Shown piece after piece: positions 3 to 32,762 of a stretch of DNA of 34,174 nt. The DNA comes from Patescibacteria group bacterium. GTDB taxonomy: Bacteria; Patescibacteriota; Microgenomatia; Levybacterales; UBA12049. Below the pieces are notes generated by a model that saw only the letters and a program-made list of their open reading frames with translations, did no database searches and was not told the DNA's origin. Position numbers and translations under genes: made by a program. The number at the start of each line of letters is the position of its first letter. The stretch's first letter is position 1. The DNA lies in contig JBBTXK010000066.1 in assembly GCA_038062315.1 (NCBI GenBank), forward strand, positions 1 through 34,174. The letters run 5' to 3'.

Positions 3-1652
3 ATAAAAATATTACTTGTAATAATTTTTATTATTGGCATACTACTTCGTTTTTACCGTCTAGGCGATGTGCCTCTCGGATTTCATAGAGATGAGGCGTT
101 TTTGGGATATAATGCTTATTCCATTCTTCTTACAGGAAAAGACATAAGCGGAAATTTTTTGCCTTTGCATTTTAAGTCTTTTCTTTACTCTCCTTCTGGC
201 TATTCATATTTATCAATACCTTTTATAAAACTTTTTGACCTTAGCCCTTTTTCTGTTCGTTTTGCCTCTGCCTTTTTTGGCAGTTTAACTATCTTGACTA
301 CATTTTTCCTCACAAAACAACTTTTTAAGGACATTAGATACAAAAATCATCTTTCGACTGCTAGCGCTCTTCTGTTATCTATCTCTCCTTGGCATATTAA
401 CCTTTCAAGAACGGCTACGGAAAATACGGTTGTAGTTTTCTTTATTACGCTGGCAGTTTTAATATATCTTCTCCATTTTTATAGTAATAAATGGTATCTA
501 TTGCCGTTATCTTTCTTTTGCTTTTTTATTACCCTTTTTATATATCAAGCTCCTCGAGTCTTTCTTCCTTTTTTCATTCCTTTATTAACAGTGCTTTTGA
601 ACACTAAAAGTAAGAGCACCATGTTTAAAATAATAATTTTTTTCATTGGTATACTTCTTCCTTTGTTTATCATATTTAGCTCAAAAGATTTATCTCTAAG
701 AATAAGAACAGTAAGCATTTTTGCAACTTCTGAGACACAGCTTCTGATCGATGAGCAGATTCGTACAGATGGAATTTCCAAGACAGGAGTTTTTCTTACG
801 CGACTTTTCCATAACAAGCTTAGTATGTATACACAACATTTTTTAGAGAATTACTTTTCCCATTTTTCTTATAACTTCTTATTTTCAGATAAATCTCTTC
901 CAGAGAGGTACCGTATTCCTCTTGTTGGGCTGCTATATCTTTTGGAGCTGCCTCTACTTGTTGTTGGGATTTTTAGGGTTGTGAAAGAAGACAGGAGGTC
1001 GTCCATTTTCTTACTTGGCTGGATTGTGATTGCTCCTGTGGGGAGCGCTTTAACTTTCGATGATGTCCCAAATATTCAAAGAACTCTTATTATCTTCCCA
1101 GCTCTTTCTATGCTCGAAGCTTTTGGGTTGATTCAAATACTGAACTTTTTAAAAAAGAATTATTGGCTAAAAATATTAGGTAGTTTCTTAACCATAGTTT
1201 TTGCCTACAACGTTTCCTTTTATCTCCACCAATATTATACGCATGCCGTAAGATACAGACCTTGGTATAGGCAGGATGGATATAAAAAGTTGGTTGAGGA
1301 AGTTAATAAATATTTGGTAAAATATAATAAGGTAATAGTTACCGATAGAGAATCTGCACCAACTATTTTTTTCTTGTTCTACTCGTTGTATCCACCCGAC
1401 CGTTTTCAACAGGAAACGAAGCGCACGAAAATGAAGGATTTTGACAGGATATTCTTTGGTAGATATGAATTTTCTCAGGAAGAATGCCCTCTAAGATTAA
1501 TTGAAAAAAATGGGCAATTGGCTTCGACAGGAGAAAAGGATGTATTATACGTAGACAGTGGCTTATGTAAAATTCCACACAATGCTAGGGTTTTTAGCAC
1601 TATTAAAAGATCAGATAACTCGTTGGCATTTTTTATATTAGCGCCGTTTTAG
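3..1652 (+). CDS. GT-C fold polytopic membrane glycosyltransferase, PMT/ArnT-like (type-A paralog); 5' end cut by window edge
   Basis: The frame stays open from nt 3 (IKILLVIIFIIGILLRFYRLGDVPLGFHRDEAFLGYNAYS), so GTG-69 of the ORF track is internal. It shares TM1, a loop-1 acidic DE motif, the ISPWHINLSR motif, many hydrophobic segments and a C-terminal soluble domain (YRQDGYKKLVEE..FFLFYSLYPPD..GRYEF) with the ORFs at 5041, 8953, 10670 and 12349. Confidence 0.8.
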   Translation: MKILLVIIFIIGILLRFYRLGDVPLGFHRDEAFLGYNAYSILLTGKDISGNFLPLHFKSFLYSPSGYSYLSIPFIKLFDLSPFSVRFASAFFGSLTILTTFFLTKQLFKDIRYKNHLSTASALLLSISPWHINLSRTATENTVVVFFITLAVLIYLLHFYSNKWYLLPLSFFCFFITLFIYQAPRVFLPFFIPLLTVLLNTKSKSTMFKIIIFFIGILLPLFIIFSSKDLSLRIRTVSIFATSETQLLIDEQIRTDGISKTGVFLTRLFHNKLSMYTQHFLENYFSHFSYNFLFSDKSLPERYRIPLVGLLYLLELPLLVVGIFRVVKEDRRSSIFLLGWIVIAPVGSALTFDDVPNIQRTLIIFPALSMLEAFGLIQILNFLKKNYWLKILGSFLTIVFAYNVSFYLHQYYTHAVRYRPWYRQDGYKKLVEEVNKYLVKYNKVIVTDRESAPTIFFLFYSLYPPDRFQQETKRTKMKDFDRIFFGRYEFSQEECPLRLIEKNGQLASTGEKDVLYVDSGLCKIPHNARVFSTIKRSDNSLAFFILAPF

Positions 1653-1668
1653 TTAAGAATTGTTTTTT

Positions 1669-3174
1669 ATGGGAAAAGTTAGCAAGATTCTCCTTAGATA
1701 TAGATTTGAGATAATTAGTTTGCTCTTTGCCTTTTTTTTGTTCTTTGGCCTTCGCCTTTATGGCTTAAAATTCCTTCCCATCTTTGTTGATGAGGCTATT
1801 TATGCCCGTTGGGCACAGCAAGGCCTATATGATCCGAGCCTTCGCTTAATCTCTTTGGTAGACGGCAAACAACCTCTTTATATTTGGTTAGTTAGTATTT
1901 TGACAAGCTACATATATAATCCTTTAGTTGCGGGAAGACTCGTGTCGATATTTGCGGGTTTTATAACGTTTGTTGGTCTTTTTTTACTTAGTTTCGAATT
2001 ATTCCGCAGTAGATGGGTTAGTATAATTTCTGTAGTCTTATACGTTCTTTACCCATTTGCCCTTATATTAAACAGGATGGCAATTTACGAGAGTCTCATC
2101 GGAATGTTTGCTGTTTGGAGCCTTTATGTTGCAATACGCCTTGTACGTTATACGAATCTGGGAATGTCTTTAATGCTGGGATTGGTTCTAGGGGGAAGTC
2201 TTCTTACAAAATCAAGTGGTTTTATAAATATTTACCTACTCCCCACAGTTCTGTTATTGTTTAATTTTAAAAAAAGAAAGCTTCAAGCACTTCTCAGGTG
2301 TCTTTTTCTTGCATTATTAGCGATAATTCTTTCCTTTCTTTATTATTCAGTTTTAGCGCTTTCCAATAAATATTATATGATTTCCGAGAAAGACGCTTAT
2401 TTTATTTACCATCTTGCAGAGCTCGTCCCCTATCAGGCTTTTGATAAATGGATAGGAAACATTTTAGAACTTTCCCATTGGACATTTATCTATCTTACTT
2501 ATCCAGTAGGACTTATTCTTTTTTTAAATCTTAGAAAAAGCAGAAAAGAAAAATTTTTACTGCTTTTTTGGTTTGTAATTCCAATTATTGGCATAGCGCT
2601 GTTTGGGCGCCTGCTTAGCCCGCGGTATATATTTCCAATGACACTTTTCTTACTGCCAATAATTGCCGTTAACCTTAAAGACTTATATTTCTTTTTGAAA
2701 AGCAAAATAGTTTATAGTTTGATTGTTATTGTGGGCGTTAGTTTTTTAGCATTTAGTGACTACAAAATTCTCACCGACCTATCCCATGCTCCGATTCCGC
2801 AGAAAGACATACAGCAATATGCTAATAGTTTTTCTTCAGGGCAGGGGTTAAGGGAAATAATCACTTATCTTGCGGGTGAAGCAGAAAAACAACAAATAAT
2901 TATAGCATCAGAAGGCATTTATGGTAGTTTGCCTACAACTGTTGTTGAAATCTACTTTGTGCATAATACCCAAGTAGAAAGATATCCGTTTAATATTCGA
3001 CCGAAAAGACTGCCCGCAGATCTTTACAAGAAAGCAAAAAGAAAGCCTGTGTACGTTATTTTTAACGAAACTCAGTCGGTTTACAACTGGCCACTGGAGT
3101 TGGTAATGCAGTTTGGGAGAGGGTCAAGCAATCTAAACCTTAGCTTATATAGAGTTCATTCTCGTATAGATTGA
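1669..3174 (+). CDS. GT-C fold polytopic membrane glycosyltransferase, ArnT/PMT_2-like
   Basis: ATG 1669 is preferred over the in-frame TTG 1660 of the ORF track. Multi-TM protein with loop-1 motif FVDEAIYARWAQ, DGKQPLYIWL (KPPL-like) and a soluble C-terminal part. Its 3' end overlaps the convergent gene by 19 nt. Confidence 0.75.
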   Translation: MGKVSKILLRYRFEIISLLFAFFLFFGLRLYGLKFLPIFVDEAIYARWAQQGLYDPSLRLISLVDGKQPLYIWLVSILTSYIYNPLVAGRLVSIFAGFITFVGLFLLSFELFRSRWVSIISVVLYVLYPFALILNRMAIYESLIGMFAVWSLYVAIRLVRYTNLGMSLMLGLVLGGSLLTKSSGFINIYLLPTVLLLFNFKKRKLQALLRCLFLALLAIILSFLYYSVLALSNKYYMISEKDAYFIYHLAELVPYQAFDKWIGNILELSHWTFIYLTYPVGLILFLNLRKSRKEKFLLLFWFVIPIIGIALFGRLLSPRYIFPMTLFLLPIIAVNLKDLYFFLKSKIVYSLIVIVGVSFLAFSDYKILTDLSHAPIPQKDIQQYANSFSSGQGLREIITYLAGEAEKQQIIIASEGIYGSLPTTVVEIYFVHNTQVERYPFNIRPKRLPADLYKKAKRKPVYVIFNETQSVYNWPLELVMQFGRGSSNLNLSLYRVHSRID

Positions 3175-4979
3175 GTAATTTGATCCATGAGTTTTCTTGC
3201 TTCCAAGGAATTTTTCGTGCGGTACTGAGGGAAAAGATAGTAGTTGCGCAGCTTAACTAAATACGAATCGTTTTTTATGATAGCGGGGATTTTTTCTATT
3301 GGGATTACCGAAAGCGAGAAAATATAAGGACCGTTTTTTATTTTTATTTCTTGCTTACTAACATTTTCCTTTAAATTCCAGTCAGAAGGGTACTCGAGGA
3401 AAAATCCAAAAGTACTGCGGTACAATCTTTTTTTATTGTTTGTCAGATATTTTCTGTATGTCTCTTCATAGATATCTCCATATTCAGGGAATTTTTTATA
3501 CTTATTTCGTAAAAAAGAGACAGTAGATTTGGTTATCGGAGAAGACGTGTAATATGCAATCAATGCGTTTTGGATACGGGGATCTTGCGGATTTTCGTGT
3601 AAATTTTTTTCCAATAACGGAAGATCTTTTCTTATTTGATCAAATTTATATATCATTTTTGCAACTGGCAAATCTCCGTGAATAAGATATTTCGGTACAT
3701 AGTTTGTCAAGGTAACTTCTTCGTACTCTTTGCTGTTTTTGTACTTTGCGAACATTTTCTGATCGCCTTTTCTTGTAACAGCATATATGGTTCCATAATC
3801 TCCCTTTATTGTTTTTTGAGTTTTTACTACCTCAAAAAAAGCGTAGTTAAAAGTTATTGATATTATTATAAGCAGTAAGAAAATGAAAGAAAAAAAGTGC
3901 CGTACAGTTTGAATTTTATTTGTAAGATAAATAGAAAAAGAAAAGCCCAAAAAGAGAAATAACAACGGCATAAGAAGAATAAAATAATGCATGAATGGCT
4001 CGAAGCGAAGAACAAAATATAAAAGCGGTAAAGATAGAGCTGCGTATACTAAAAAACGGACTTTTCTCTCTTTTCTCCAAAATAAAAAAAGACCAAGAGG
4101 AATAAGTATGTATTCAATATATAAACCGACTCGCAAATAGTAAATCAACGGAAAATTTTTAGCAAATGTGAGCATATCGTCGCCCAAAACAAAATTAAAG
4201 TTCCCCTGGCTGAGAATTTGTAACGGTCTCGTAAATATTACAAGCGAGTATTGAGGGGATAATCGTTCGTTAATACCAAGGATAACTGCGCAGTCTGGAC
4301 AACCAGTAGTAGCCTCATAGAGAAAATAGGGAATAATTGGCAAAATTCCTATTAGGAAACCAATTGTCATATATTTTATGCTCATAATAATTTTCTGTCG
4401 GAATAAAAATAATGCAAGAAGAAATAAGAACAATATGCTAGACTGATGCATCTGTATGAGAAAAAGTGAACCCACAATACAGGGTACCCAGTAGGATATC
4501 TTTTTCTCAAAAATAATTTTATGTAGGCTGTATAAAACTAGAATGAAAAAGGGAATTAGTATATCTTGGGACCATATCTTGCGAGAAAAAAGAATTGCCC
4601 AAGGAGAGAAGGCAAAAAGAAGCGATGCAGAAAATGCTGTGAGAAAATTATAGTAGCGCTTTATTAACAGATAAAACAAGCCAATTGCGAAGGAATTAAT
4701 CAGTGCAATGCTTAGGGAAATCAGTTTGGGGTCTCTTGTTACAAAAATAAAAGGAAATAATATGTAGTTAAAAAGTGGCGGGTTTAAGATACCAACACTA
4801 GATGCAGTTCCTCCAGGGGGAAATCCATAACCGAAAAAAGGCCGCGATGCCAAGAAAAGATTAATTGCCTCATCTGCTTTAAATTCTATTAAATCAAGAT
4901 TTGTTACGCGAAAAAGGGCGGCACAAAAGATGATAAATAAAAAAATAAAGTTAGAGCGTAATAATCTTTTGAAAAACAT
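3156..4979 (-). CDS. GT-C fold polytopic membrane glycosyltransferase, PMT_2-like, with about 220-aa soluble C-terminal domain
   Basis: ATG at 4979 (minus strand). N-terminal TM followed by acidic loop motif EFKADEAINLF and GILNPPLFNY, then many hydrophobic segments and a hydrophilic C-terminal third. Confidence 0.75.
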   Translation of the reverse strand: MFFKRLLRSNFIFLFIIFCAALFRVTNLDLIEFKADEAINLFLASRPFFGYGFPPGGTASSVGILNPPLFNYILFPFIFVTRDPKLISLSIALINSFAIGLFYLLIKRYYNFLTAFSASLLFAFSPWAILFSRKIWSQDILIPFFILVLYSLHKIIFEKKISYWVPCIVGSLFLIQMHQSSILFLFLLALFLFRQKIIMSIKYMTIGFLIGILPIIPYFLYEATTGCPDCAVILGINERLSPQYSLVIFTRPLQILSQGNFNFVLGDDMLTFAKNFPLIYYLRVGLYIEYILIPLGLFLFWRKERKVRFLVYAALSLPLLYFVLRFEPFMHYFILLMPLLFLFLGFSFSIYLTNKIQTVRHFFSFIFLLLIIISITFNYAFFEVVKTQKTIKGDYGTIYAVTRKGDQKMFAKYKNSKEYEEVTLTNYVPKYLIHGDLPVAKMIYKFDQIRKDLPLLEKNLHENPQDPRIQNALIAYYTSSPITKSTVSFLRNKYKKFPEYGDIYEETYRKYLTNNKKRLYRSTFGFFLEYPSDWNLKENVSKQEIKIKNGPYIFSLSVIPIEKIPAIIKNDSYLVKLRNYYLFPQYRTKNSLEARKLMDQITQSIRE

Positions 4980-5040: not shown

Positions 5041-6675
5041 ATGGAAAAGAAGTATTTATTGCTTTTAATTATCGTTATACTTGCTGCAATTTTGCGGTTT
5101 TGGCAGTTGGGGATTATTCCAACTGGTGTAACTCACGACGAACTGGGATACATTTACAATTCATACTCAATTGCAAAAACAGGAAGAAATGTATTCGGCG
5201 AGTTTCTACCCTTTCTTACATGGATGAATCAAGGAGGGTGGCCTTTTCTTCCGGTCCCAATTTATTTTTCTATTCCATTTTTTTGGTTGTTTGATTTATC
5301 GGCAACTGTAGGGAGATTGCCTTCTGCCATTCTTGGAGTGGCAGATGTTTTGTTGATTTATATATTAATAAAACAAATTTTTAATAAAACATCTCTTGCT
5401 TTATTGTCTGCTTTTTTTCTCGCTATTTCTCCTTGGCACCTGCATTTTAGTAGATCTGCTTATGATCCAAACTTCGCACTATTTTTTTATCTGCTTGGGA
5501 CTGTGATTTTCATATCGGAAATAAAGTCGAAAAGAATGCCTATTTTTTCAGCAGTATTTTTTTGGCTTGCAATTTTTAGCTATCGAGCTATGAATATCAT
5601 CTTTTTTCCTCTTGTTATTATTTTGATCTGGTACGGGATTGTTGCTCTTAAAGCAAAATATAAACAATTAATCATATTGCTTCTTGGGGTTTTTGTTGTG
5701 GTTGTCTCCTTGGTATTTGCGATTACTACAAATGGGAAAAGGTACATATCAGAAGCGTCGATTGTTAATCAAGCTAAAATGCAGGAGGAACTTGACAATC
5801 AAATTCGTGATGCGCAGGGGCCTCTTTTCCTTCGCCGGATATTTCTCAATAAGCCAGTTTACATAGTAAGTAAGCTTAGAGAAAATTATGTAAAAGCGTA
5901 TTCGCCAGAGTTCCTTTTCCTTTATACGGATCCAAGTAAAATATACTCTATTTGGTCAAGAGGAAGAATTTATTTTATAGATATAATTTTTATTGTTTTG
6001 GGAACTGTGTATTTGTATGCTATCAATAAAAAGGGAGCTTTTTTTATAACATCGCTTTTGCTTATTGGTGGCTTGCCCGGAATGATTGGCGGTACGCCGT
6101 ATTCGGCCCGAAACTTATTGCTATCTGCTGTTTTCCCAGTTTTTTCAGCGGGAGGCGTCTTTTTTTTACTGAATAACCCTTTTTTAATAAAATTCAAAAC
6201 TATAATTATTGCTACAGTTATTTTGACTTATGTTTATTTGTTGGGAAGTTATTTATTCGACTATTATGGTAGATATGCATTGTATGGCGGGGAGGCATGG
6301 GTAAAAAGCCTTAAAGATCTAAGTCTATTAATTACGGAAAATAAAAAGACGCACGATAAAATTATTGTAGGACAAACTTCATTTGGCGATCTAATTCAGT
6401 ATGCATTTTATACCAAGATTAAGCCATCTGATGTACAGAATGCTTGGCAGAAGAGACAGGCAGATATAGGTGAATCATTCTCGATAGATAACGTAATTTT
6501 TACGACACGATGTTTGGATAATAAGACCGGTGGCTTGCCGGCACTTAGGGAATATAAGTCAGTTTTGTATGTTGTGCGCGACGATTGCGCCAAAATGGCA
6601 ACGCCAAGCGCTTTAATTAAAGATTATCCTGGGAATACAATATGGAAAATCTATAATATTGGACATTTATTATGA
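5041..6675 (+). CDS. GT-C fold polytopic membrane glycosyltransferase, PMT/ArnT-like (type-A paralog)
   Basis: LAAILRFWQLG TM1, loop-1 THDELGYIYNSYS (DE motif) and ISPWHLHFSRSAYDPN. The C-terminal soluble domain (HDKIIVGQ..YAFYTKIKPSD) aligns with the other type-A paralogs. Confidence 0.8.
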   Translation: MEKKYLLLLIIVILAAILRFWQLGIIPTGVTHDELGYIYNSYSIAKTGRNVFGEFLPFLTWMNQGGWPFLPVPIYFSIPFFWLFDLSATVGRLPSAILGVADVLLIYILIKQIFNKTSLALLSAFFLAISPWHLHFSRSAYDPNFALFFYLLGTVIFISEIKSKRMPIFSAVFFWLAIFSYRAMNIIFFPLVIILIWYGIVALKAKYKQLIILLLGVFVVVVSLVFAITTNGKRYISEASIVNQAKMQEELDNQIRDAQGPLFLRRIFLNKPVYIVSKLRENYVKAYSPEFLFLYTDPSKIYSIWSRGRIYFIDIIFIVLGTVYLYAINKKGAFFITSLLLIGGLPGMIGGTPYSARNLLLSAVFPVFSAGGVFFLLNNPFLIKFKTIIIATVILTYVYLLGSYLFDYYGRYALYGGEAWVKSLKDLSLLITENKKTHDKIIVGQTSFGDLIQYAFYTKIKPSDVQNAWQKRQADIGESFSIDNVIFTTRCLDNKTGGLPALREYKSVLYVVRDDCAKMATPSALIKDYPGNTIWKIYNIGHLL

Positions 6676-7337
6676 ACAGAAAGTCAATATCGAATTTAGA
6701 AAAAGAGTTGGTGGAAATTTGGCACCAAGTTCCACCCGATTACTATCAAAAGGGAGTATCAAAAAATTTACTTCAGCGAATCTGGCATACGCAGAAATTG
6801 AAAACAGCTCTAGAACTTATTGAAAATAATGGGGTAAAACCAAAAAATATTCTTGATGTTGGTTGTGCCAGCGGTTGGATGTTATCCAAAATTTCAGAGC
6901 AATACCCCAAGGCGCAATGTGTAGGGATAGATGTGTATAAAAGAGCCATAGAGTATGGACAAAAACTTTATAAAAACTTAAGGCTTATTTCTGTAGATGC
7001 TCATAAGTTGCCATTCAAGGATAAATTCTTTGATCTTGTAATTTGTACAGAATTGCTAGAACATGTAGAAAATCCGCAAAAAGTATTGTCAGAAATTAAA
7101 AGAACTCTTGCGCCAAATGGAATAGCAGTTGTTGAGATGGATTCAGGAAATTTTTTGTTTCGAATGGTTTGGTATTGGTGGACTAATGTGAGACATGGGG
7201 TGTGGAGAGATTCCCACATTCACACTTTCAATACAAAAATTCTAGAAAACATGATTGCGGACTCCGGTTTTGTTATTACGCAAAAAAAGATATTTAATGT
7301 TACTATGGCGGTTGCATTTCTTCTCAGAAAAAAATGA
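6672..7337 (+). CDS. class I SAM-dependent methyltransferase (Methyltransf_11-like)
   Basis: Motif I ILDVGCASGWML, acidic motif II GIDVY, then HKLPFKDKFFDLVICTELLEHVENPQKVLSEIKRTLAPNGIAVV. ATGA start/stop overlaps at both ends (6672-6675, 7334-7337). Confidence 0.8.
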   Translation: MNRKSISNLEKELVEIWHQVPPDYYQKGVSKNLLQRIWHTQKLKTALELIENNGVKPKNILDVGCASGWMLSKISEQYPKAQCVGIDVYKRAIEYGQKLYKNLRLISVDAHKLPFKDKFFDLVICTELLEHVENPQKVLSEIKRTLAPNGIAVVEMDSGNFLFRMVWYWWTNVRHGVWRDSHIHTFNTKILENMIADSGFVITQKKIFNVTMAVAFLLRKK

Positions 7338-15583: not shown

Positions 15584-15584
15584 A

Positions 15585-18670: not shown

Positions 18671-18680
18671 TTATAACTGT

Positions 18681-23815: not shown

Positions 23816-24886
23816 ATGAGAATTGCAATTGATGTTTCACCGTTAACAAGTAAGAAGTCTTTGCAGCATAGGGTAAGGGGAACAGGTTTTTATATAGAAT
23901 ATCTAAAGAAGCATCTAGTAAGTTATTATCCTAATAATCAGTATATTTTTTTTACTCGAGGAGAAAAAATACCCGAAAATGTTGACTTGGTACACTATCC
24001 TTATTTCGAGCCATTCTTTCTAACACTTCCTTTTGCCAGAAAATATAAGGCAGCGGTAACAGTTCATGATCTTACTCCTCTTGTATTTCCGAGGAATTTT
24101 CCATCAGGATTACGAGGAATAATAAAATGGAAAATTCAAAAATTTCTTTTAGAAAAAATAGATGCACTTATTGCCGATTCAGAGTCTTCAAAAAATGATA
24201 TATTGAAATTTACAAATATTCCTGAAAATAAAATTCATGTAGTTTATCTTGCGGCATCGCCTTCTTTCAAAAAGATAAATACCTCAGCACTTCAAAGCAT
24301 TAAGCAGAAATATAAATTGCCTGATAAATTTGTTCTCTATGTTGGTGATGTAACGTGGAATAAAAATCTGCCAAGACTTGTTGAGGCTATTAAAAAAATT
24401 AACTTAACAATGGTAATGATTGGAGCGGCTTTAGTTCGGAAGGATTTTGATTGGACTAATCCCTGGAATCAAGATTTGTTTAGCGTTATAAAATCAATAG
24501 GAAACGATAGGAGATTTATAAGGCATGGGTTTATTCCAGCAAAAGATTTGGTCGTTATTTATAACCTAGCAACAGTTTTTGCGATGCCCTCTCTTTATGA
24601 GGGATTTGGTTTACCAATTTTAGAAGCAATGTCTTGCGGATGTCCTGTCGTCGCGTCTAAGAACGGATCAATTCCTGAAGTGGCAGGAGGCGGAGTATAT
24701 TATGTTGATCCGTATGATATTAACGAACTTGCAAACGGCATTGGTGAGGTTTATTTTAATCAAAAACTGCGAAAGGAACTTGCTTTGAAAGGTCTTGCTC
24801 AAGCCAAAAAGTTTTCATGGGAAAAAACAACAAAAAAAACCATAGATGTCTACCGATCAGTAGTAAATCATTCTAGCATTAGTTAG
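23816..24886 (+). CDS. GT4 family (GT-B fold) glycosyltransferase
   Basis: MRIAIDVSPL, VHDLTPLVFP, FVLYVGDVTWNKN, MPSLYEGFGLPILEAMSCGCPVVASKNGSIPEV (EX7E region). Confidence 0.85.
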   Translation: MRIAIDVSPLTSKKSLQHRVRGTGFYIEYLKKHLVSYYPNNQYIFFTRGEKIPENVDLVHYPYFEPFFLTLPFARKYKAAVTVHDLTPLVFPRNFPSGLRGIIKWKIQKFLLEKIDALIADSESSKNDILKFTNIPENKIHVVYLAASPSFKKINTSALQSIKQKYKLPDKFVLYVGDVTWNKNLPRLVEAIKKINLTMVMIGAALVRKDFDWTNPWNQDLFSVIKSIGNDRRFIRHGFIPAKDLVVIYNLATVFAMPSLYEGFGLPILEAMSCGCPVVASKNGSIPEVAGGGVYYVDPYDINELANGIGEVYFNQKLRKELALKGLAQAKKFSWEKTTKKTIDVYRSVVNHSSIS

Positions 24887-24958: not shown

Positions 24959-25723
24959 ATGCAAAACATAAACTTATTATCCCTTGTTGTTCCAGCCTAC
25001 AAGCAAGAAAGGACGATCTTAAAAAATATAGAAAGCCTTGACAAAGTTTTGTCTGAAACTCCTTATAAGTATGAGATAATTGTTGTTGTTGATGGGTTTA
25101 TGGATAACACTTTCGAAAATGCGAAAAGAATTAATAAAAAAAATATTAAAGTTCTGGGGTATGAAAAAAATCAGGGAAAAGGACACGCTGTAAGATACGG
25201 CATGCTAAGAGCAAAAGGAGATGTTATCGGATTTATGGATTCAGGAATGGATATAAATGCGACAGGAATTTCTATTCTCTTAGATTATATGTTATGGCAG
25301 GATGCGGATATCATGATTGGGAGCAAGCTGCATCCCGAATCAAAGGTAAATTATCCAATATTTAGGAAAGTATTGTCTTGGGGCTACAGAACCTTGACTC
25401 ATTTATTTTTTGGGTTTAAGGTTCGCGATACTCAGGTAGGTTTAAAATTTTTCAAAAGAGATGTAGTTGAGAAAATATTCCCAATGCTTTTAGTTAAAGC
25501 TTTCGCTTTTGATGTGGAGGTTTTGGCTGTTTCAAGCGCTTACGGGTATAAAAAAATTTATGAAGGACCTGTACAGCTCAATTTCAATAAGATTAGCAGC
25601 ATTACGACTAAAAATTTTTGGGTAATAGTATTTCTTATGCTTTGGGATACATTGGCAATTTTTTACAGATTAAAAATTCTCAGGTTTTATAAGATAAAAG
25701 ATATGAGAAATGTTAGAAAATGA
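24959..25723 (+). CDS. GT2 family, polyprenyl-phosphate glycosyltransferase type (Dpm1/GtrB-like)
   Basis: LSLVVPAYKQE, YEIIVVVDGFMDNT, NQGKGHAVRYGMLRAKGDVIGFMDSGMD and RDTQVGLKFFKR (equivalent to the D-x-Q-x-GFK motif of this subgroup). Confidence 0.75.
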   Translation: MQNINLLSLVVPAYKQERTILKNIESLDKVLSETPYKYEIIVVVDGFMDNTFENAKRINKKNIKVLGYEKNQGKGHAVRYGMLRAKGDVIGFMDSGMDINATGISILLDYMLWQDADIMIGSKLHPESKVNYPIFRKVLSWGYRTLTHLFFGFKVRDTQVGLKFFKRDVVEKIFPMLLVKAFAFDVEVLAVSSAYGYKKIYEGPVQLNFNKISSITTKNFWVIVFLMLWDTLAIFYRLKILRFYKIKDMRNVRK

Positions 25724-26991
25724 GAAAAATAATTAATTTGGCATTTAGACATCCTTTGATTTCCGGAAGCACTGTTATTTTTTTTGGCTCAATGACAGCC
25801 AACATACTTAACTATGTTTTTAATTTAGGCACGGGAAGACTTCTCTCGCACTCCGACTACGGCACACTAATATCTCTTGTTTCCGTATTTAATATTTTTT
25901 CTGTTTTTTCAATTACGATTTCTACTGTTTTCGCGAAGTTTTCTGCCGTGTACGTAGGCCAAAAGAAGGAACAATTGCTCTTGCCTCTTTTTGTTTCTGG
26001 AAGTATGTGGATTGGAATAATATCTGTCTTTGTAGCCATGATAATGATTATTTTTTCTTCACAAATATCACAATTCCTCAATATCAGTTCCGTATTCCTA
26101 GTTAATATTGTAGCTCTTTCTTTGTTTTTTTCGTATTTATCTTCTGTTGGGGTTGGAATTTTACAGGGGTTATTAAAATTTGGATATTACTCTTTCATCA
26201 ATATATTTTCTTCTTTAGTAAAACTTGCACTAGGTATGTTTCTTATTTTCTTTGGGCTCAAGGTTTTAGGGGGAATAGCTGCATTTTTTATATCCATCTT
26301 AGTTGCCTATCTTCTTACCCTTCCTCCAATTTATAGGTTGATGAAAAGAAAAAGCGGAAGTCTTTCTATTCAAAATTTGTTTAGCAAACTTTCTCTTTAC
26401 GGTCTTCCGGTTTTTTTGTCAAATATTGGTATTACTGCATTTATAACTATCGACATCATCTTAGTTAAACATTTTTTTGATCCCGCAGTCGCAGGACAAT
26501 ATTCAGCCATTTCAATTATGGGAAGATCTATTTTTTTTGTAGTTTCTCCAATCACGCTAGTTTTGTTTCCTCTAGTTGCCCAAAAAAAGGAAAGAAAAGA
26601 AGATTTAACAGGGATAGTTTTATTATCACTTTTTCTTGTTGCTGTTCCTGCGGTTCTACTTAGTTTTATTTATTTTATTTTTCCAGAGATAGTTCGCAAT
26701 GTGTTTTACCCTTCTTATGAGGCAAGACTTCTAAATCCATATCTTGGACAGTTTTCGATTTTTATATTGTTTTATGCTTTTATCTATCTTTTGAATTTAT
26801 TTTATCTTTCGATTGGCAAGACTAAGGTTTATATTTTAACTATTTTGGGGTCGGTTTTGGAGATCGTTCTCATTTATTTTTTCCATAAGGATATTGGGCA
26901 GATCATAAATAGCTTGATAACAAGCTCTTTTTTACTTCTTGTTAGTCTTTTGTTGTATTTGCCAAAGGCTACAAAAGATTCTAAAGATTAA
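25720..26991 (+). CDS. MOP/Wzx-type oligosaccharide or polysaccharide flippase
   Basis: 423 aa, hydrophobic throughout (about 12 or more TM segments). The N-terminal pattern ANILNYVFNLGTGRLLSHSDYGTLISLVS is typical of polysaccharide-biosynthesis (Wzx/MurJ superfamily) proteins. ATGA overlap with the GT2 gene. Confidence 0.6.
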   Translation: MRKIINLAFRHPLISGSTVIFFGSMTANILNYVFNLGTGRLLSHSDYGTLISLVSVFNIFSVFSITISTVFAKFSAVYVGQKKEQLLLPLFVSGSMWIGIISVFVAMIMIIFSSQISQFLNISSVFLVNIVALSLFFSYLSSVGVGILQGLLKFGYYSFINIFSSLVKLALGMFLIFFGLKVLGGIAAFFISILVAYLLTLPPIYRLMKRKSGSLSIQNLFSKLSLYGLPVFLSNIGITAFITIDIILVKHFFDPAVAGQYSAISIMGRSIFFVVSPITLVLFPLVAQKKERKEDLTGIVLLSLFLVAVPAVLLSFIYFIFPEIVRNVFYPSYEARLLNPYLGQFSIFILFYAFIYLLNLFYLSIGKTKVYILTILGSVLEIVLIYFFHKDIGQIINSLITSSFLLLVSLLLYLPKATKDSKD

Positions 26992-27001
26992 TTTGTTTAT
27001 T

Positions 27002-28138
27002 ATGCGTATTTTAATTTTTAATTGGAGAGACATAAAGAACCCAGCCTCTGGAGGAGCTGAGATTTTAACCCACGAAATGGCGAAGCGTTGGGTTGGGCAA
27101 AAACATCAAGTAACCCTTTTTACTTCGAAGTTTGATGATGGTAAAGAGACAGAGGTTGTAGATGGTGTAAAGATTATCCGCAAGGGAACATGGTGGACGG
27201 TGCATATATACGCATTTTTCTACTACACAATATATTTAAAAAAAAATACAGATATAATAATTGACGAAGTACATTTTTTTCCTTTTTTTTGTGTCCTTTA
27301 TGCGAGGAAAAAAACCATTGCCTTAGTATGTGAGGTTGCAAACAAACTCTTCTTTACGCTCTTTCCTTATCCTATTGCATTATTGGGAAGAGCGGCTGAA
27401 AAAATATATCTTTGGATGTATAGAAATGTCCCAACGATGGTAATTTCTCCATCAACAGAAAAGGATTTAATAAAAGAAGGACAGAGAAAAGACATAATTC
27501 GTGTTTTGACCTTAGGCATCTCTTATCCTAAAGGCTTAAAAATTCACAAGAAAGAAAATAAACAAACAATTATTTATCTGGCAAGAATAAATAAGCAAAA
27601 AGGAGCGCTGGAAGCAATTGAAGCATTTTCCATTGTTGAAAAAGAAATTGCAAATTGCCAGTTATGGATTGTAGGTTCAGGAGTCTCAGATTATATTACG
27701 ATGTTACGCAAAAAAATCAGTGATTATAAAATTGTTCATTCCGTAAAATTCTTAGGTTTTGTTTCAGAGAAACGAAAGTTCGAGCTTTTATCAAAGGCTC
27801 ATATACTTATTGTTCCGTCAGTACATGAGGGCTGGGGATTGACTGTTCCCGAAGCAGGGTCAGTGGGTACACCAGCAATTGTATATGATGTTCCCGGTCT
27901 TCGTGATGTGGTTAGAGATGGAATAAATGGCATTATTGTAAATAAGACCCCTGCACATCTTGCGGAAGGAATTAGAGAAGTTTTTACAAATAAAAGTAAA
28001 TATCAAGCATTATGCAATGGCGCAAAGAAAGAAAGCGAGAAATATAATTGGGACAAGACAGCAGAAGTCGCATTAGAAGTATTAAATTCGAAGTTAGAAT
28101 TTCCCGCTTCGCAGCGAGGCAAGGGAAATCCGAAATAA
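27002..28138 (+). CDS. GT4 family (GT-B fold) glycosyltransferase
   Basis: ATG 27002 (MRILIFNWRDIKNPASGGAE) is preferred; the ORF-track start 26939 lies inside the flippase gene. VPSVHEGWGLTVPEAGSVGTPAIVYDVPGLRDVV (EX7E region). The last 16 codons are formed by repeat element E6. Confidence 0.85.
   Translation: MRILIFNWRDIKNPASGGAEILTHEMAKRWVGQKHQVTLFTSKFDDGKETEVVDGVKIIRKGTWWTVHIYAFFYYTIYLKKNTDIIIDEVHFFPFFCVLYARKKTIALVCEVANKLFFTLFPYPIALLGRAAEKIYLWMYRNVPTMVISPSTEKDLIKEGQRKDIIRVLTLGISYPKGLKIHKKENKQTIIYLARINKQKGALEAIEAFSIVEKEIANCQLWIVGSGVSDYITMLRKKISDYKIVHSVKFLGFVSEKRKFELLSKAHILIVPSVHEGWGLTVPEAGSVGTPAIVYDVPGLRDVVRDGINGIIVNKTPAHLAEGIREVFTNKSKYQALCNGAKKESEKYNWDKTAEVALEVLNSKLEFPASQRGKGNPK
28084..28129 (+). 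repeat. in-frame mini-element E6: heptamers plus a composite GC hairpin, forming the C-terminal tail of the GT4 gene
   Basis: AAATTCG AAGTTAG AATTT (compare AAATTGG AAGTTGG AAATT in E2). Outer stem ATTTCCC (28099-28105) pairs with GGGAAAT (28123-28129). Inner stem GCTTCGC (28106-28112) pairs with GCGAGGC (28114-28120), with one G-T pair. Translated as NSKLEFPASQRGKGN. Confidence 0.75.
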
Positions 28139-28155: not shown

Positions 28156-29469
28156 ATGTTCAAAAAGAATAAGTCACAGTTTTTTATCTTACTGTTTGTT
28201 ATTTCTCTTGGTTTTTTGCTTCGATACCATAATTACGCAATATATCCGCGGCATGGAGCTACATTTGATGAATTCGCGTGGACTTGGCTTGGTATAAATC
28301 TTATACAGAAAGGAGTGCCAATTTCCTGGTCTCCGCACCCTCAGTATAAAGAAAGAAAAGAAATCAGATATCAAGGCGCGGCTTTTTTAATCGTCAAGCC
28401 ATATCTTGAACATCCGCCCCTATTTGGTATTGTTGCTGGTACATCGGCACTTCTGAGCGGCGCAAAGGATATGTATAGCGTTACCTTAACGAATATGAGG
28501 GGACTTTCTGCTGTATTGGGTATATTATCGATAGTTGCGCTGTTTATTTTTACCAATTCGCTTTATGGGAAAACAATTGCATATGTAAGTACAATTCTTT
28601 ATGCAACTGTACCGACAATTGTTATAGGATCTAGAATCGTTCAGAATGAAAACTTTCTTATTCCTTTTTGGCTTTTTTCTCTATATTTAATTAACAAATA
28701 CTTACAGACTAAGAAACTCTGGATGAGGAATATTGCATCAGTTATTGGCGGTTTATTAATTCTGGCAAAAGTTCCCTGGATTGTCGTACCTCTATCTCTT
28801 GGGATGATTTTATTTTATAAAGGAAAATGGAAAGATGCATTATTTGTAGGCGGTGTTGCTGCGGGATTTTTTTCGTTATTTATAGCGTATGGTTTATATT
28901 TCGACAAAGAGTTGTTCGTTAATTTATTTCAGCTGCAAGTAGCGCGGTACGATATATCTTTTGATGGATTATTCTCAATTTTTACTCATCCGCTTCTTGT
29001 AGATAGATATTACCTTGATGGGTGGATTTTATTTGGATGGGTAAGTATATTCTATATCTCAAAAGATATAAAAAAACATTTATTTGTTTTGTTGCCTTTT
29101 ATTTCTTATTTCGTCCTTTACGTTTTCGCCATTCCTAATGAGCCAGGTCATGGTTGGTATAGATATCCATTCTATCCGTTTTTGATTAGTGCATTAGCCT
29201 TTGTATTGGAAGAAGAACGAAAAAAACTATCATTTTTGACTTTATTTTTTGCATTGATAGTTGGATTTGCGCTTTTGCAAAACGTCTGGAAAGAAGCATT
29301 CGGTTTTTCGTTTGTCGTCTATAGATCGTTCATTCTTGTTGTTATCGTACCAATGCTTTATTTTATATGGAAAAACAGAAAAGATAGAATGCCACAGCTT
29401 TTCCTATGTCTCTTGGTCACTATTTTTATTATTTTTAATATATTTTCTGTTATAGTATATGTTGAATAA
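28156..29469 (+). CDS. GT-C-like polytopic membrane protein (PMT_2-like)
   Basis: N-terminal TM, TFDEFAWTWLGINL (loop-1 DE motif), YLEHPPLFGIV (PPL motif), hydrophobic to the C-terminus. Confidence 0.65.
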   Translation: MFKKNKSQFFILLFVISLGFLLRYHNYAIYPRHGATFDEFAWTWLGINLIQKGVPISWSPHPQYKERKEIRYQGAAFLIVKPYLEHPPLFGIVAGTSALLSGAKDMYSVTLTNMRGLSAVLGILSIVALFIFTNSLYGKTIAYVSTILYATVPTIVIGSRIVQNENFLIPFWLFSLYLINKYLQTKKLWMRNIASVIGGLLILAKVPWIVVPLSLGMILFYKGKWKDALFVGGVAAGFFSLFIAYGLYFDKELFVNLFQLQVARYDISFDGLFSIFTHPLLVDRYYLDGWILFGWVSIFYISKDIKKHLFVLLPFISYFVLYVFAIPNEPGHGWYRYPFYPFLISALAFVLEEERKKLSFLTLFFALIVGFALLQNVWKEAFGFSFVVYRSFILVVIVPMLYFIWKNRKDRMPQLFLCLLVTIFIIFNIFSVIVYVE

Positions 29470-29477: not shown

Positions 29478-30968
29478 ATGGATATAATTGAATTATTTAT
29501 TTATGCTTTGCCAATCTCCGTTCTTGGGTTTATTTTCGAAGCATACCCACGATTCTTAAATAGGGGCTTTGGTGTTGACATTTGGACGCACCTCTTGTAC
29601 CTTCGTGAGTACCATAGACAAAAAGGAATACCAAAAAGAATTGAGAATGGTTTTCTTGTATCTGGGAAATACGATTATCCGCCCGCATTTATCCTTATTC
29701 TTTCTAGGTTTCCCCAGCGTCTTGTTGAACGATATGAGTTTGTCTTTTCTCCGTTTTTCGATTTTATTCATTTACTGATTATTTTCTTTATTTCTTTTCA
29801 GTTAACAAATAGTCTTTTTATTGCGCTTATTACGCAGTCTCTTTATATACTGACTCCAATTATTGTGCTTGAAAATTCTAGCGCCACCCCGCGATCGCTT
29901 GGTTATACATTATTTACGATCATGCTTATGTCTCTTTTCATTTATACCCAGCAGGGAAATATGGTTTACTTTCTTGTTTCTATTTTTTCCGGTTCATTTA
30001 TCTTTTTATCTCATCGGCTCACAACTCAAGGATTATTATTTTTTCTGCTATTCTTTACATTGTATGGTAGAAATATTATTTATATCGGTGTATTCTTTCT
30101 GTCATTTTTTCTTGCTCTTTTGTTTTCTAAAGGATTTTATTTGAGGGTTTTACAAGGACATGTAGGCAATTTAAAATTTTGGTACAAAAATATTGAATAT
30201 CGTTTTGCGCATCAAATTAGAGGCAATTACAGGGAGTATAAAACTCAAGATTTTGTATTTAGTGTTTACAATCAATTCCTAAAATTTCCTCCTTTTGTTC
30301 TTGCCGTTACCAATACATGGACACTACCTGTGTTTTACATTTTCTTTTTTCTTATGCCATCGGACCCTTTAATGCAAAAAATGGTATTGTGGGTAATATT
30401 TTCGTATGCCCTTGCCTTATCTACAACGTGGGTTCCTCGACTTCGTTTTCTGGGAGAAGGACAGCGATATCTTGAGCTTTCTGCTTTTCCTACAGCATTT
30501 CTATCGGCTTGGCTATTGAATCATTGGCTTACAACTCCCTATTCTCTAACCGTTGCTTCCGGATATATTTTTGTGGGTATTTGCGCGCTGATTACGATTG
30601 TCGTAATACAAAAAAAGGCAATTATTAAGGACAAGCTTCGTACCCTAACTCCAAGCTTACAGAAAATGTATGACTATCTGAGATCGCTGAAACAGAAACC
30701 AAAGCTTCTTTGCATTCCGCATCAAATAACCACAAATACTATTTACCATACTGGTTGCCCAGTATTGGTTAATGCTGATTATACCAATATCGAAAAAATC
30801 TCAGACATTTATCCATTTTTAAGAAAACCAGTAAAAGAGATTATGAGGGAGTATGGTTTGGATGCGATACTCCTGAACGAAGATTATGCTGCGATACAAG
30901 ATTTGCGGTTGAAGAACTATCATATACTAAAACGTTATAATAATTATGTATTGCTAAAAACAATATGA
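29478..30968 (+). CDS. polytopic membrane protein, family not recognised (candidate GT-C or polymerase/ligase-like)
   Basis: 496-aa ORF with many hydrophobic segments. It has a short N-terminal loop GFGVDIWTHLLYLREYH and a soluble C-terminal part of about 110 aa (LCIPHQITTNTIYHTGCPVLVNADY). I could not match it to any signature. Confidence 0.5.
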   Translation: MDIIELFIYALPISVLGFIFEAYPRFLNRGFGVDIWTHLLYLREYHRQKGIPKRIENGFLVSGKYDYPPAFILILSRFPQRLVERYEFVFSPFFDFIHLLIIFFISFQLTNSLFIALITQSLYILTPIIVLENSSATPRSLGYTLFTIMLMSLFIYTQQGNMVYFLVSIFSGSFIFLSHRLTTQGLLFFLLFFTLYGRNIIYIGVFFLSFFLALLFSKGFYLRVLQGHVGNLKFWYKNIEYRFAHQIRGNYREYKTQDFVFSVYNQFLKFPPFVLAVTNTWTLPVFYIFFFLMPSDPLMQKMVLWVIFSYALALSTTWVPRLRFLGEGQRYLELSAFPTAFLSAWLLNHWLTTPYSLTVASGYIFVGICALITIVVIQKKAIIKDKLRTLTPSLQKMYDYLRSLKQKPKLLCIPHQITTNTIYHTGCPVLVNADYTNIEKISDIYPFLRKPVKEIMREYGLDAILLNEDYAAIQDLRLKNYHILKRYNNYVLLKTI

Positions 30969-30986
30969 TGCATTTCGGGACACTTT

Positions 30987-32762
30987 TTACTTCCCAACCT
31001 CTTTTAAAATCTCGACAAATTTTAATTCCATTTTTTTTAATTCTTCTTGTTTTACTTCTTTTTTCTTTTTAAATACCGTAACTTCGCTACTATCTTGATT
31101 TATCCATATTTTAGCCCTTTCTTCGTAATAATTTTTGATATCAAGATAATTATCAAAGAAAATAATTATAGCTTTTAATGTTTTGTAATTAATCTCTGCA
31201 AAATAGTTGTCGGTTTTTTGGCCACTTTTAGTTAATATATAGTCTGATTTCAAGACATTATCTATAAGAATAACTCCTTCTTTATCTGGATCATTAATTA
31301 CAGTTCCAACAAAATTATTTATAGTTAAGGGTTTTTCTTGATTGTAAAGATTGTACGTCATAAGGGGTTCATCTAAAGGCCGATAATAAAATAAGGATAG
31401 GATTTGGGGATCTGCTATTCTATTACTTTTGCTGTCTTTTGCAATAAAATCTAGAATTTCTCTTCCGCTAATTTTATAAATATATGGCGGGCGAGAAATA
31501 GAAGTAAGATATATTTTGTCCAATTGACCAAAGGGAAGTTTAACAGGAAGTGTATATAGACTTTGTTTCATAGGGCCTTTTCCCCATACGCTTCCAAGAA
31601 ACGTAAGTATGGATATTATTATGGTAAGAGCTATCAATATTGTTTTGTAACGGATAGTTTTGATTGCGTAGAATACAGAGGCAGACAAAATAGCTAGATA
31701 CGGAAAATTAGGAATTATATGTCGTTCTGCTTTTAGTAAGGCATAGCAAGAAAATGCATACGATATAATAACAGCAAGTAAAATAGGTTTTAATTTGCTT
31801 TTTTTTCTGAAAGCTAAGATAAATCCTGCAATAAATATCAAAAACTGGACAATACCAAGCTGCGCAAATGAATTAAGATAAAATGTAAGAGAGTACGCAG
31901 AGAGAGGATTTCTTTCTTCTCCTGAAACTATTTGCCACATTGGACCACCGACTCTATGTCCTCTAAAATATTCTATTATCCAATAGAAATTTTGATAATA
32001 TGGGTAGAAAGAGACAAGGAATGCAATCAAGAATGAAAGCGTCGCATGTAATAATACTCTTTTTTTCGTAAACAAGCGCCTCTTTAAAATTTGGTACAAA
32101 ACATACAAGAGTGGCCCGAAAACGTAAACAATTACTATCCATTTAATCAAAAGCCCCAAGCCCAAAGATAAGCCAAAAAGAATAGAGTATTTTCTGCTTT
32201 GAAAATAATTTGATTTTATTAAAAACAAAATGATTAATATACAAAACGCAGATGTGGCTGTTTCTGAATATGTTAGGTGGACATGAAGAAGAGTCCAGCC
32301 ATAAAAAGCAAAAATAAAAGCTGCCATAAATGAAGCCAATTTGCTTACAAAGTTTCTTGCGAGGAAATATATCCCAAAAATACTAACAATATACAACAGG
32401 CCATTTGTAAAAATTCCCCAAAAGTAAGAATTTGATAAGCCGAAAGCAAAAAGAAATGGCACAATAAGTAGTGGATAGCCTATTTGTCTAAAGGGTACTA
32501 CTTGCAACATTTCATGGAGAGTATTGGGTGATAAGTTATATTTAATTAATCTATAAAACTCAGTTGCCATGCGCATGTAGTGCTGCTCATCCCACTCAGG
32601 AATCTTAAAAGTTCGCAGACCGTAACGCACAACACTTACTAAAAATACAACTGAAAGAATTGTTAATAGAAAAAGATATTTATCAAATCTCAACTTTTTA
32701 ATAATCGGAGTTTTCTTCCAGATAAGTAGAATATTCCTATGAATACTTTTTTTGATTTTCAT
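30987..32762 (-). CDS. GT-C fold polytopic membrane glycosyltransferase, PMT_2-like, with about 200-aa soluble C-terminal domain
   Basis: ATG at 32762 is preferred over the adjacent TTG at 32765. TM1, then FKIPEWDEQHYMRMATEFY (DE motif), many TM segments and a hydrophilic C-terminal third. Confidence 0.7.
   Translation of the reverse strand: MKIKKSIHRNILLIWKKTPIIKKLRFDKYLFLLTILSVVFLVSVVRYGLRTFKIPEWDEQHYMRMATEFYRLIKYNLSPNTLHEMLQVVPFRQIGYPLLIVPFLFAFGLSNSYFWGIFTNGLLYIVSIFGIYFLARNFVSKLASFMAAFIFAFYGWTLLHVHLTYSETATSAFCILIILFLIKSNYFQSRKYSILFGLSLGLGLLIKWIVIVYVFGPLLYVLYQILKRRLFTKKRVLLHATLSFLIAFLVSFYPYYQNFYWIIEYFRGHRVGGPMWQIVSGEERNPLSAYSLTFYLNSFAQLGIVQFLIFIAGFILAFRKKSKLKPILLAVIISYAFSCYALLKAERHIIPNFPYLAILSASVFYAIKTIRYKTILIALTIIISILTFLGSVWGKGPMKQSLYTLPVKLPFGQLDKIYLTSISRPPYIYKISGREILDFIAKDSKSNRIADPQILSLFYYRPLDEPLMTYNLYNQEKPLTINNFVGTVINDPDKEGVILIDNVLKSDYILTKSGQKTDNYFAEINYKTLKAIIIFFDNYLDIKNYYEERAKIWINQDSSEVTVFKKKKEVKQEELKKMELKFVEILKEVGK

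Follow-up and report, generated by a model that had tools for sequence, protein, structure and literature searches.

A conserved gene cluster encoding sixteen GT-C-type membrane proteins in a Levybacteria-type bacterium, possibly for the assembly of an envelope glycan

Bacteria of the Candidate Phyla Radiation (CPR) make do with much reduced genomes, and their presumed way of life is one of attachment to other cells. What would one of them build with sixteen large membrane proteins of glycosyltransferase type, encoded one after another in a single stretch of DNA? This question is raised by the 34,174 nt analysed here (henceforth the window; contig JBBTXK010000066.1 of assembly GCA_038062315.1, from a Patescibacteria group bacterium of the Levybacterales). 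The window contains 25 open reading frames (ORFs) of at least 150 aa, 23 of them on the forward strand, and almost no non-coding DNA, so that it has no room for more genes. Leaving aside a Wzx-like flippase, sixteen of the ORFs encode polytopic proteins of 378–607 aa and together cover 74.3% of the window, which agrees with the original prediction, made from the sequence, of sixteen such proteins on about 70% of it. Their genes sum to 25.4 kb, or about 3.3% of the complete 762-kb chromosome (762,565 bp) of a related bacterium. The window takes in the greater part of a long cluster of closely spaced genes from a CPR bacterium of the Levybacteria type, and the explanation that we favour, giving it about an even chance, is that the cluster encodes as an operon an assembly line that works outside the membrane with polyprenyl-phosphate sugars and builds an envelope polysaccharide or lipoglycan.

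All sixteen polytopic proteins are of the GT-C type, as seen from their Pfam matches, from the fold of two orphans among them and from a shared acidic motif. All-against-all BLAST put five into one family (family A: g01, g04, g07, g08 and g09, 26–42% identity) and two into another (family B: g11 and g17, 35% identity); nine are left as singletons, and the set comprises at least 11 sequence types. In order of position the sixteen are:

g01, 3 to 1652, forward strand: GT-C of family A (PMT_2/PMT), truncated at the N-terminus where the contig ends, motif HRDEA
g02, 1660 to 3174, forward strand: GT-C (PMT_2), singleton and variable member, motif VDEA
g03, 3156 to 4979, reverse strand: GT-C close to PMT_2 but narrowly missing its cut-off, motif ADEA, C-terminal tail of 227 aa
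g04, 5041 to 6675, forward strand: GT-C, family A paralogue (PMT_2), motif HDEL
g06, 7334 to 8926, forward strand: assigned to GT-C by its fold alone, in no Pfam or NCBIfam family, with FGCFDDC invariant behind the first transmembrane segment (TM1)
g07, 8953 to 10677, forward strand: GT-C, family A core member (PMT and PMT_2), motif WDEA
g08, 10670 to 12352, forward strand: GT-C, family A core member (PMT and PMT_2), motif WDEV
g09, 12349 to 14088, forward strand: GT-C, family A paralogue (PMT_2), motif LDEV
g10, 14036 to 15583, forward strand: GT-C (PMT_2, 31.2 bits), motif LLDQGRD
g11, 15570 to 17234, forward strand: GT-C, family B (PTPS_related), motif THDGEDH, C-terminal transmembrane anchor
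g12, 17243 to 18670, forward strand: ArnT-like GT-C (PMT_2, PMT, weak STT3), motif WDEA
g16, 21010 to 22146, forward strand: GT87/MptA-like GT-C, motif VDQN
g17, 22122 to 23780, forward strand: GT-C, family B (PTPS_related and YfhO), motif THDGEYH, C-terminal transmembrane anchor
g22, 28156 to 29469, forward strand: GT-C (PMT_2 and PMT, 51.2 bits), motif FDEF
g23, 29478 to 30968, forward strand: GT-C by fold only, no Pfam family, invariant GVD34, YDYPP, ENSSATPRS and GEGQRYLE
g24, 30987 to 32765, reverse strand: GT-C (PMT_2, 32.8 bits), motif WDEQ, 199-aa C-terminal tail

Twelve of the sixteen pass the Pfam gathering scores (26.1 bits for PMT_2, 26.4 for PTPS_related, 28.5 for YfhO and 25 for GT87), ten as PMT_2/PMT (g01, g02, g04, g07, g08, g09, g10, g12, g22 and g24) and two as PTPS_related, one of these also as YfhO (g11, 31.9 bits; g17, 48.0 bits and 46.1 bits for YfhO). 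The strongest PMT_2 match is that of g12 (80 bits), which also aligns through residues 14–327 to the ArnT of C. metallidurans (5ezm, E 1.1e-16). The PMT_2 scores of the others lie between 25 and 51 bits, among them g01 with 28.2 bits, which is 33% identical to g08, and g02 with 29.5 bits, whose homologues are labelled 'glycosyltransferase family 39 protein' by NCBI. Two further proteins fall below the thresholds: g03, at 25.5 bits, is 0.6 bits short for PMT_2 (E 1.7e-5) and is tied to g07 by BLAST (E 7e-8), and g16 reaches 23.4 bits with the GT87 model (E 6e-5) and 23.7 bits against a cut-off of 439 for the MptA model TIGR03459 (E 2e-5); the g16 orthologue in one relative (locus L082) has a recorded match to PF26314 (MptA_B_family). 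Altogether 14 of the 16 match specific GT-C models with E-values of 1e-5 to 1e-22. Profile searches of the PDB sequences gave for family A a single match, to ArnT (E 0.087), and for g16 and g17 none.

The acidic motif lies 3–17 residues past TM1 in each of the sixteen (ten DE, one DD, two HDGE, three D or D..D) and is missing from the flippase. Its residues are invariant in the alignments: D34 and E35 in family A, D44 and D45 in the homologues of g06, D34 in those of g23. The N-terminus is positively charged in 15 of the 16, and a crude hydropathy scan found 7–11 hydrophobic peaks in every one. The signature on which the original prediction was built is therefore real, and its count of fourteen carriers was too low. 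The classes named there (PMT/ArnT-like, PTPS-related/YfhO-like and GT87-like) are all recovered by the Pfam and MptA matches, GT87 just below threshold; the check proposed with it, a search by models and structures that might have assigned most of the proteins to transporters or other non-GT-C folds, returned GT-C models for 14 proteins and GT-C folds for the two orphans.

These orphans, g06 and g23, owe their place in the set to the fold search, since sequence by itself gives no link to the PMT-like proteins: hhalign found no significant similarity between their alignments and that of family A (probability 14% and 0.6%), and sequence profile searches of the PDB with the same alignments returned nothing meaningful. 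Both were modelled with AlphaFold2 from alignments of 34–35 homologues, and the models, helical bundles with a mean predicted local distance difference test score of 86.8 (g06) and 89.4 (g23), were matched to the PDB with Foldseek. The top six matches of g06 are STT3, AftA (two chains), DPY19, PglB and ALG3, with probabilities of 0.82–1.0, the next match being at 0.10. The top 34 matches of g23 all have the GT-C fold (STT3 with E 3e-7, AglB, DPY19, PglB, ArnT, AftA/B/D, ALG9/12 and Pmt4), with TM-scores up to 0.61; transporters rank lower there, with probability <0.1, and over both searches they stay at probability ≤0.1 and a TM-score of about 0.1. By fold, g23 comes closest to STT3, AglB and PglB (E 3e-7 to 1e-4, TM-score 0.53–0.61 on the query), and such oligosaccharyltransferases rank high for g06 too, yet the identification of g23 as an oligosaccharyltransferase was rejected, because it has neither WWDYG nor a large C-terminal domain. 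The same holds for g06; neither protein has an STT3 match in Pfam, and the C-terminal tails measure about 110–119 aa in g23 and about 157 aa in g06. The rank of STT3 may reflect only the number of STT3 entries in the PDB.

Both families extend well beyond the window. g23 is the most conserved GT-C of the set (60–82% identity among the listed homologues); its family has 1151 cluster representatives at E ≤1e-3, and none of 10 diverse members sampled matched Pfam. The g06 family has 496 homologues at E ≤1e-5, all 'hypothetical protein' where named. Going by the modelled folds, the g06 and g23 types are two GT-C families that Pfam does not yet cover.

Is the cluster a peculiarity of one genome? 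One genome per GTDB species was scanned with the family A alignment, giving more than 580 relatives, and the best 80 loci, selected on g08, were compared by BLAST of all their ORFs against the window proteins. Almost all of them belong to metagenome-assembled genomes (MAGs) of Candidatus Levybacteria/Levyibacteriota, Roizmanbacteria, Woesebacteria and Microgenomates/Patescibacteria, at 46–64% identity to g08. The order that recurs is (g01)-(g03)-g07-g08-(g09)-(g10 x n)-g11-g13-g14-g15-g16-g17-g18-g20-g19-g21-(g22), where g13–g15 and g18–g21 are the soluble and accessory genes listed further below. While g08 is in 80 of the 80 loci by selection, the g07-g08 pair is in 77 (g07 orthologue at ≥40% identity); g07 always adjoins g08 in the relatives, and in the window its stop overlaps the start of g08 by 8 nt. 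In a neighbour-joining tree of family A the sequences group by orthologue (g01, g07, g08, g09) and not by genome, and the clades of g07, g08 and g09 each hold members from Levy-, Roizman- and Woesebacteria, which argues that the paralogues are old, non-redundant and older than the split of these lineages. Judged from the conserved order in the 80 loci and from the orthologue clades, the backbone of the cluster is old and vertically inherited in the sampled Microgenomates (CPR) lineages and is not a strain-specific island. Horizontal acquisition as an island was also considered and rejected, given the uniform GC content (low throughout the window, 0.32–0.36), the conserved synteny and the orthologue clades.

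The framing of the locus as an 'extreme' 'island' is accordingly not supported, since g07-g08, g11 and g13–g21 follow one another in a constant order throughout the 80 loci. In the 49 loci of more than 20 kb there are 3–11 GT-C-like ORFs per 21.6 kb (median 7), and the maximum in the window over the same span is 11; the window is at the upper end of the GT-C density normal for the lineage, a density that is high and not unique. Nor does the comparison speak for combinatorial decoration, the function first proposed, as old orthologue clades in a fixed order suggest a distinct and fixed role for each enzyme. To the question whether the locus is conserved or strain-variable the answer is divided: the backbone is conserved, and the 5' part, g01–g06, varies.

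Variation between relatives is confined to this 5' part and to g10-like copies, the g10 type being multi-copy in some. A close relative, with a g06 orthologue 74% identical, carries YfhO-GT2-DUF2079-GT2-X-YfhO in place of g01–g05, and others carry YfhO-GT2-GT2-X-X upstream; orthologues of g03 (43–49% identity) are on the minus strand in the relatives too. Downstream, relatives have an extra GT-C together with genes for dTDP-sugar and aminosugar synthesis. In another Levybacterium the orthologue of g02 (63% identity, L085:10001-11512) is found outside the cluster; its neighbours there are two genes of GH130, a family annotated as mannoside phosphorylases, as well as metK, a GT4-GT2 fusion gene and dnaA/dnaN. 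The variable 5' block may add decorations.

Some further features of the relatives are recorded here for their own sake. Their clusters include membrane-protein types that are not in the window, namely DUF2079, a weak Mannosyl_trans2 (PIG-V-like) match and proteins of 414 aa and 497 aa without Pfam match (loci L084:3368-4810, L082:4278-5402 and L020:3836-6573). Dozens of Third Party Annotation MAG records titled 'uncultured Gammaproteobacteria bacterium' hold the same gene order at 46–61% identity to g08 (loci L012, L013, L017, L018, L020 and many other CAY*/CAZ* records), and a 4.9-kb contig labelled 'Pacearchaeota archaeon' (L005) also holds cluster genes; such titles are probably stand-in names or the product of mistaken binning. 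The MAG H52-bin050_1 has two copies of the cluster (g07-g08...g13-g14) on separate contigs (L007 and L019), which could be a true duplication, a strain mixture or a chimeric bin.

Within the window, the 20 ORFs between 5041 and 30968 are all co-directional, and neighbours either lie no more than 72 nt apart or overlap at their stop and start codons. Scans of the window for intrinsic terminators gave counts not above those in shuffled sequence and none between genes, sigma-70 promoter counts were at or below the shuffle expectation with no intergenic site, and Rfam had no match. The tight co-directional packing, with weak support from the scans and their lack of terminator-like sites between genes, suggests one or a few long transcripts for this region. 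The left edge of the window is a contig end, where g01 is open and in frame from base 3, as had been noted from the start.

By exact protein match, the public record for the window and its flank is contig CAYIAJ010000002.1 (GCA_964361395.1; 36,676 nt), of which bases 1–34174 are the window. Past the window, the same contig carries a second S-adenosylmethionine (SAM) methyltransferase and a GNAT acetyltransferase, and then a seventeenth GT-C (35331-36674 of the record, minus strand; L001:12477-13820), which the contig end truncates and which is paralogous to g23 (38.7% identity over 444 aa, E 5e-94). The ORF starts at 14036, 18633, 20462, 22122 and 26939, mostly TTG, overlap the upstream gene by 25–53 nt, and the public record has g21 as 378 aa from about 27002 and g24 as 591 aa; on both grounds several genes probably begin downstream of the mechanically called ORF start. 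For g02 as listed there is no exact protein match on record, the public call probably using another start.

Which other activities would such an array have at hand? The remaining nine ORFs are:

g05, 6672 to 7337, forward strand: soluble class I SAM-dependent methyltransferase (Methyltransf_11, E 2e-23)
g13, 18633 to 19472, forward strand: soluble GT2
g14, 19494 to 20492, forward strand: UDP-glucose 4-epimerase GalE (TIGR01179)
g15, 20462 to 21013, forward strand: DUF5667-like (E 4.6e-5, below the gathering score), one N-terminal hydrophobic segment
g18, 23816 to 24886, forward strand: soluble GT4 (GT-B fold)
g19, 24959 to 25723, forward strand: GT2 like dolichyl-phosphate mannose synthase (DPMS) and GtrB, with C-terminal hydrophobic segment, candidate polyprenyl-phosphate hexose synthase
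g20, 25720 to 26991, forward strand: MOP/Wzx-type flippase (Polysacc_synt), about 11 transmembrane segments
g21, 26939 to 28138, forward strand: soluble GT4 (GT-B fold)
g25, 32855 to 33895, forward strand: soluble 346-aa protein without Pfam or NCBIfam match, divergent from g24 and 89 nt away from it

The GalE, Dpm1/GtrB-like GT2, Wzx-like flippase and two GT4 of the original prediction are thus all present, and a second GT2 (g13) that it did not list comes in addition. GalE is identified at the equivalog level (399 bits, cut-off 262). The best solved relative of g19 is the DPMS of P. furiosus (5mlz, E 9.4e-13), aligned over residues 7–189, the whole catalytic domain, followed by GtrB (5ekp, sll0501, E 1.2e-4) and ArnC (9hwj, E 4.7e-3); with a hydrophobic segment at residues 220–241 it has the make-up of the DPM1/GtrB/ArnC type, its NCBIfam matches being below threshold. 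The best-conserved accessory gene in the relatives is g13 (up to 72% identity), whose nearest solved relatives are the protein/peptide glycosyltransferases GmaR (E 3.5e-12) and SunS (E 5e-11) and not polymer synthases. The flippase g20 scores 46.2 bits for Polysacc_synt (cut-off 28.2). The position of g15 between galE and g16 is kept in relatives from several candidate phyla, and its product may act as an acceptor or as a partner without enzymatic activity.

Pfam searches of the window ORFs gave no match at E ≤0.01 to MraY/WecA (Glycos_transf_4), Bac_transf, Wzy_C, Wzz or ABC transporters, and none to an O-antigen ligase, in keeping with what had been read from the letters; a priming phosphoglycosyltransferase, Wzy, Wzz, ligase and ABC exporter were equally absent from the sampled flanks of the relatives. 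Of the Wzx/Wzy-dependent machinery, window and sampled flanks thus have Wzx (g20) alone, and, in line with what had been supposed, the locus does not look like a standard O-antigen or capsule locus of the Wzx/Wzy or ABC type. These absences fit a pathway that does not polymerise repeat units on polyprenyl diphosphate.

In the assembly line that we favour, GalE (g14) would supply UDP-hexose epimers, and g19 would load a hexose on polyprenyl phosphate at the inner face of the membrane. The soluble GT4 proteins g18 and g21 and the GT2 g13 may make a lipid-linked primer from nucleotide sugars, and the Wzx-type flippase could move a lipid-linked intermediate across the membrane. Outside, the sixteen GT-C proteins would extend and branch the glycan, their catalytic acidic loop after TM1 lying on the outer side, and each paralogue would probably make one linkage. 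The methyltransferase g05, together with the methyltransferase and the GNAT acetyltransferase past the window, may add modifications. A polyprenyl-phosphate-linked donor for the GT-C proteins is indirectly indicated, through the predicted DPMS/GtrB-like GT2 in the same operon. That the enzymes are linkage-specific is suggested by the persistence of old, non-redundant paralogues in a fixed order; beyond the family and fold of the GT-C proteins, we infer their donor, acceptor, order of action and product.

Several points weigh against this explanation. Acceptor, product and enzyme activities of the cluster are predictions, and the Pfam PMT/PMT_2 matches fit protein O-glycosylation equally well. 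No GT-C protein reaches a curated NCBIfam cut-off, and only g12 has a clear sequence relative of solved structure (ArnT). A Wzx hints at a polyprenyl-diphosphate intermediate, yet window and flanks have no priming enzyme, which could be encoded in another region of the chromosome. Since even close relatives have a different 5' part, some of the GT-C proteins may serve for decoration and not in the assembly line. Finally, the tree of family A carries no bootstrap values, and with loci picked through g08 the conservation is that among g08-bearing genomes.

The closest precedent is found in mycobacteria and corynebacteria. The assembly line follows the logic of their glycan pathways, or else that of a three-component system of GtrB and GT-C on a greatly enlarged scale. 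In the assembly of lipomannan and lipoarabinomannan, GT-C arrays work outside the membrane with polyprenyl-phosphate mannose from Ppm1, and for these lipoglycans as for arabinogalactan the primer comes from cytoplasmic GT4 enzymes and the donors from a GT2 synthase (PMC3485146, PMC3123699, PMC2157549). The counterparts here of that machinery (PimA/PimB', Ppm1, PimE, MptA-D, EmbA-C, AftA-D) are the GT87/MptA-like g16, the DPMS-like GT2 and the two GT4 proteins, and the fold searches with g06 and g23 returned AftA, AftB and AftD among other structures. Mycobacterial genes for these glycans are spread over several loci, unlike the single operon-like block here, and the sequence similarity is remote, with no curated NCBIfam cut-off reached. 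Enzymes of Emb size (>1000 aa) and genes for decaprenyl-phosphate arabinose are absent as well, and the cluster belongs to a CPR bacterium whose genome is probably smaller than 1 Mb.

The ArnT/ArnC system for lipid A aminoarabinose (GT83) offers a further likeness, in that g12 aligns to ArnT and g19 weakly to ArnC. However, g12 has 95 bits against an equivalog cut-off of 567 (NF009784), and ArnA, ArnB and ArnD genes are absent from the window; moreover, CPR bacteria are thought to have no Gram-negative envelope (PMC6744442).

Among the alternatives, protein O-glycosylation survives best, although we regard it as rather unlikely. The PMT-like GT-C proteins would then each put a sugar, taken from polyprenyl-phosphate hexose, on Ser/Thr residues in various secreted proteins (pilins, S-layer or adhesin-like proteins) and the other GT-C proteins would elongate these glycans outside the cell, a route that needs no priming transferase, polymerase or ligase. 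Eleven proteins match PMT_2 and several match PMT with a DE motif in loop 1, as in the GT39 PMTs (Pmt1/2/4 and actinobacterial Pmt), and the fold search with g23 also returned Pmt4; but PMT_2 also spans ArnT and many lipid- and glycan-directed enzymes, the scores are 25–51 bits except for g12, and the family A profile finds no PMT structure by sequence. Pmt1 and Pmt2 form a heterodimer, and the always adjacent, translationally overlapping g07-g08 pair recalls it; the MIR domain that eukaryotic PMTs have on their luminal side was found by Pfam in no window protein. The relationship of g13 to GmaR and SunS likewise points to proteins as acceptors, while the only candidate acceptor in the cluster is the small DUF5667 protein g15. 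Sixteen enzymes of at least 11 sequence types, with two GT4 and a Wzx, far exceed the known protein O-mannosylation systems, and the studied MptA/GT87-like and YfhO-like enzymes act on glycans or polymers.

Also unlikely, in our estimate, is that the cluster gathers independent three-component decoration systems (a GtrB-like GT2, a flippase and a GT-C), variably combined, each adding single sugars to a polymer made elsewhere, such as a teichoic-acid-like or peptidoglycan-linked glycan, in order to vary the surface against phages or for host recognition. The model would be GtrA/GtrB/GtrC or the action of CsbB-YfhO on teichoic acids, with a GT2 synthase followed by a flippase and a GT-C, and the likeness is tangible: g11 and g17 are of the PTPS_related/YfhO type, g19 matches GtrB, and the relatives have more YfhO genes upstream, each beside a short GT2. 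Variation of the 5' region and of g10-like copy number, and the g02 orthologue at another site in another Levybacterium, would also fit. Known three-component systems have one GT-C each, however, as opposed to sixteen here, with one clear donor synthase (g19) for all of them in the window; the flippase is of the MOP/Wzx and not the GtrA type, and teichoic acid genes are absent from the window. Most of the paralogues are old and keep a fixed order across candidate phyla, which diversifying selection would not predict, and neither phase-variation repeats nor mobile-element genes were seen among the window ORFs.

That the sixteen are transporters or other membrane proteins which match GT-C models through hydrophobic composition alone is already disfavoured and very improbable: several Pfam scores are within a few bits of the cut-off and hhalign did not join g06 and g23 to family A, but against this stand the E-values of 14 proteins to specific GT-C models, fold searches of g06 and g23 in which every high-probability rank is GT-C, invariant acidic residues at the expected position in loop 1 and the co-located soluble glycosylation enzymes.

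A more far-reaching form of the assembly line can be put forward only tentatively, and we think it more doubtful than probable: a mycobacterial-style lipoglycan or heteropolysaccharide in Microgenomates, built almost entirely outside the membrane by one operon of at least 40 kb with at least 17 GT-C proteins, including two families that Pfam does not describe. If so, the cluster would take up about 3–5% of a genome below 1 Mb, its product would be a surface structure for the attachment of ultra-small cells to their hosts, and the locus would be, to our knowledge, the densest GT-C gene cluster seen. The enzyme class and the pathway logic are familiar, and several genes of the cluster are already public under the annotation 'glycosyltransferase family 39 protein'; for the cluster itself we found no published description. 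Our literature search returned no publication on a GT-C expansion or such a cluster in CPR, Patescibacteria or Microgenomates, and the key CPR papers that we checked make no mention of glycosyl- or mannosyltransferases.

For enzymology, the cluster adds to the known range of GT-C sequences, in a class of enzymes whose catalogue is still poor. It also provides concrete targets, namely the candidate donor synthase g19, the GT-C pair g07-g08 and the two GT-C families outside Pfam, which can guide glycomics, lectin probes, the interpretation of cryo-electron tomography and heterologous reconstitution. For the biology of these bacteria, 25.4 kb of GT-C genes kept in order across candidate phyla would mark a costly, conserved surface glycan that is central to CPR life, and gives a concrete handle on CPR surface chemistry, a striking investment for a genome of less than 1 Mb.

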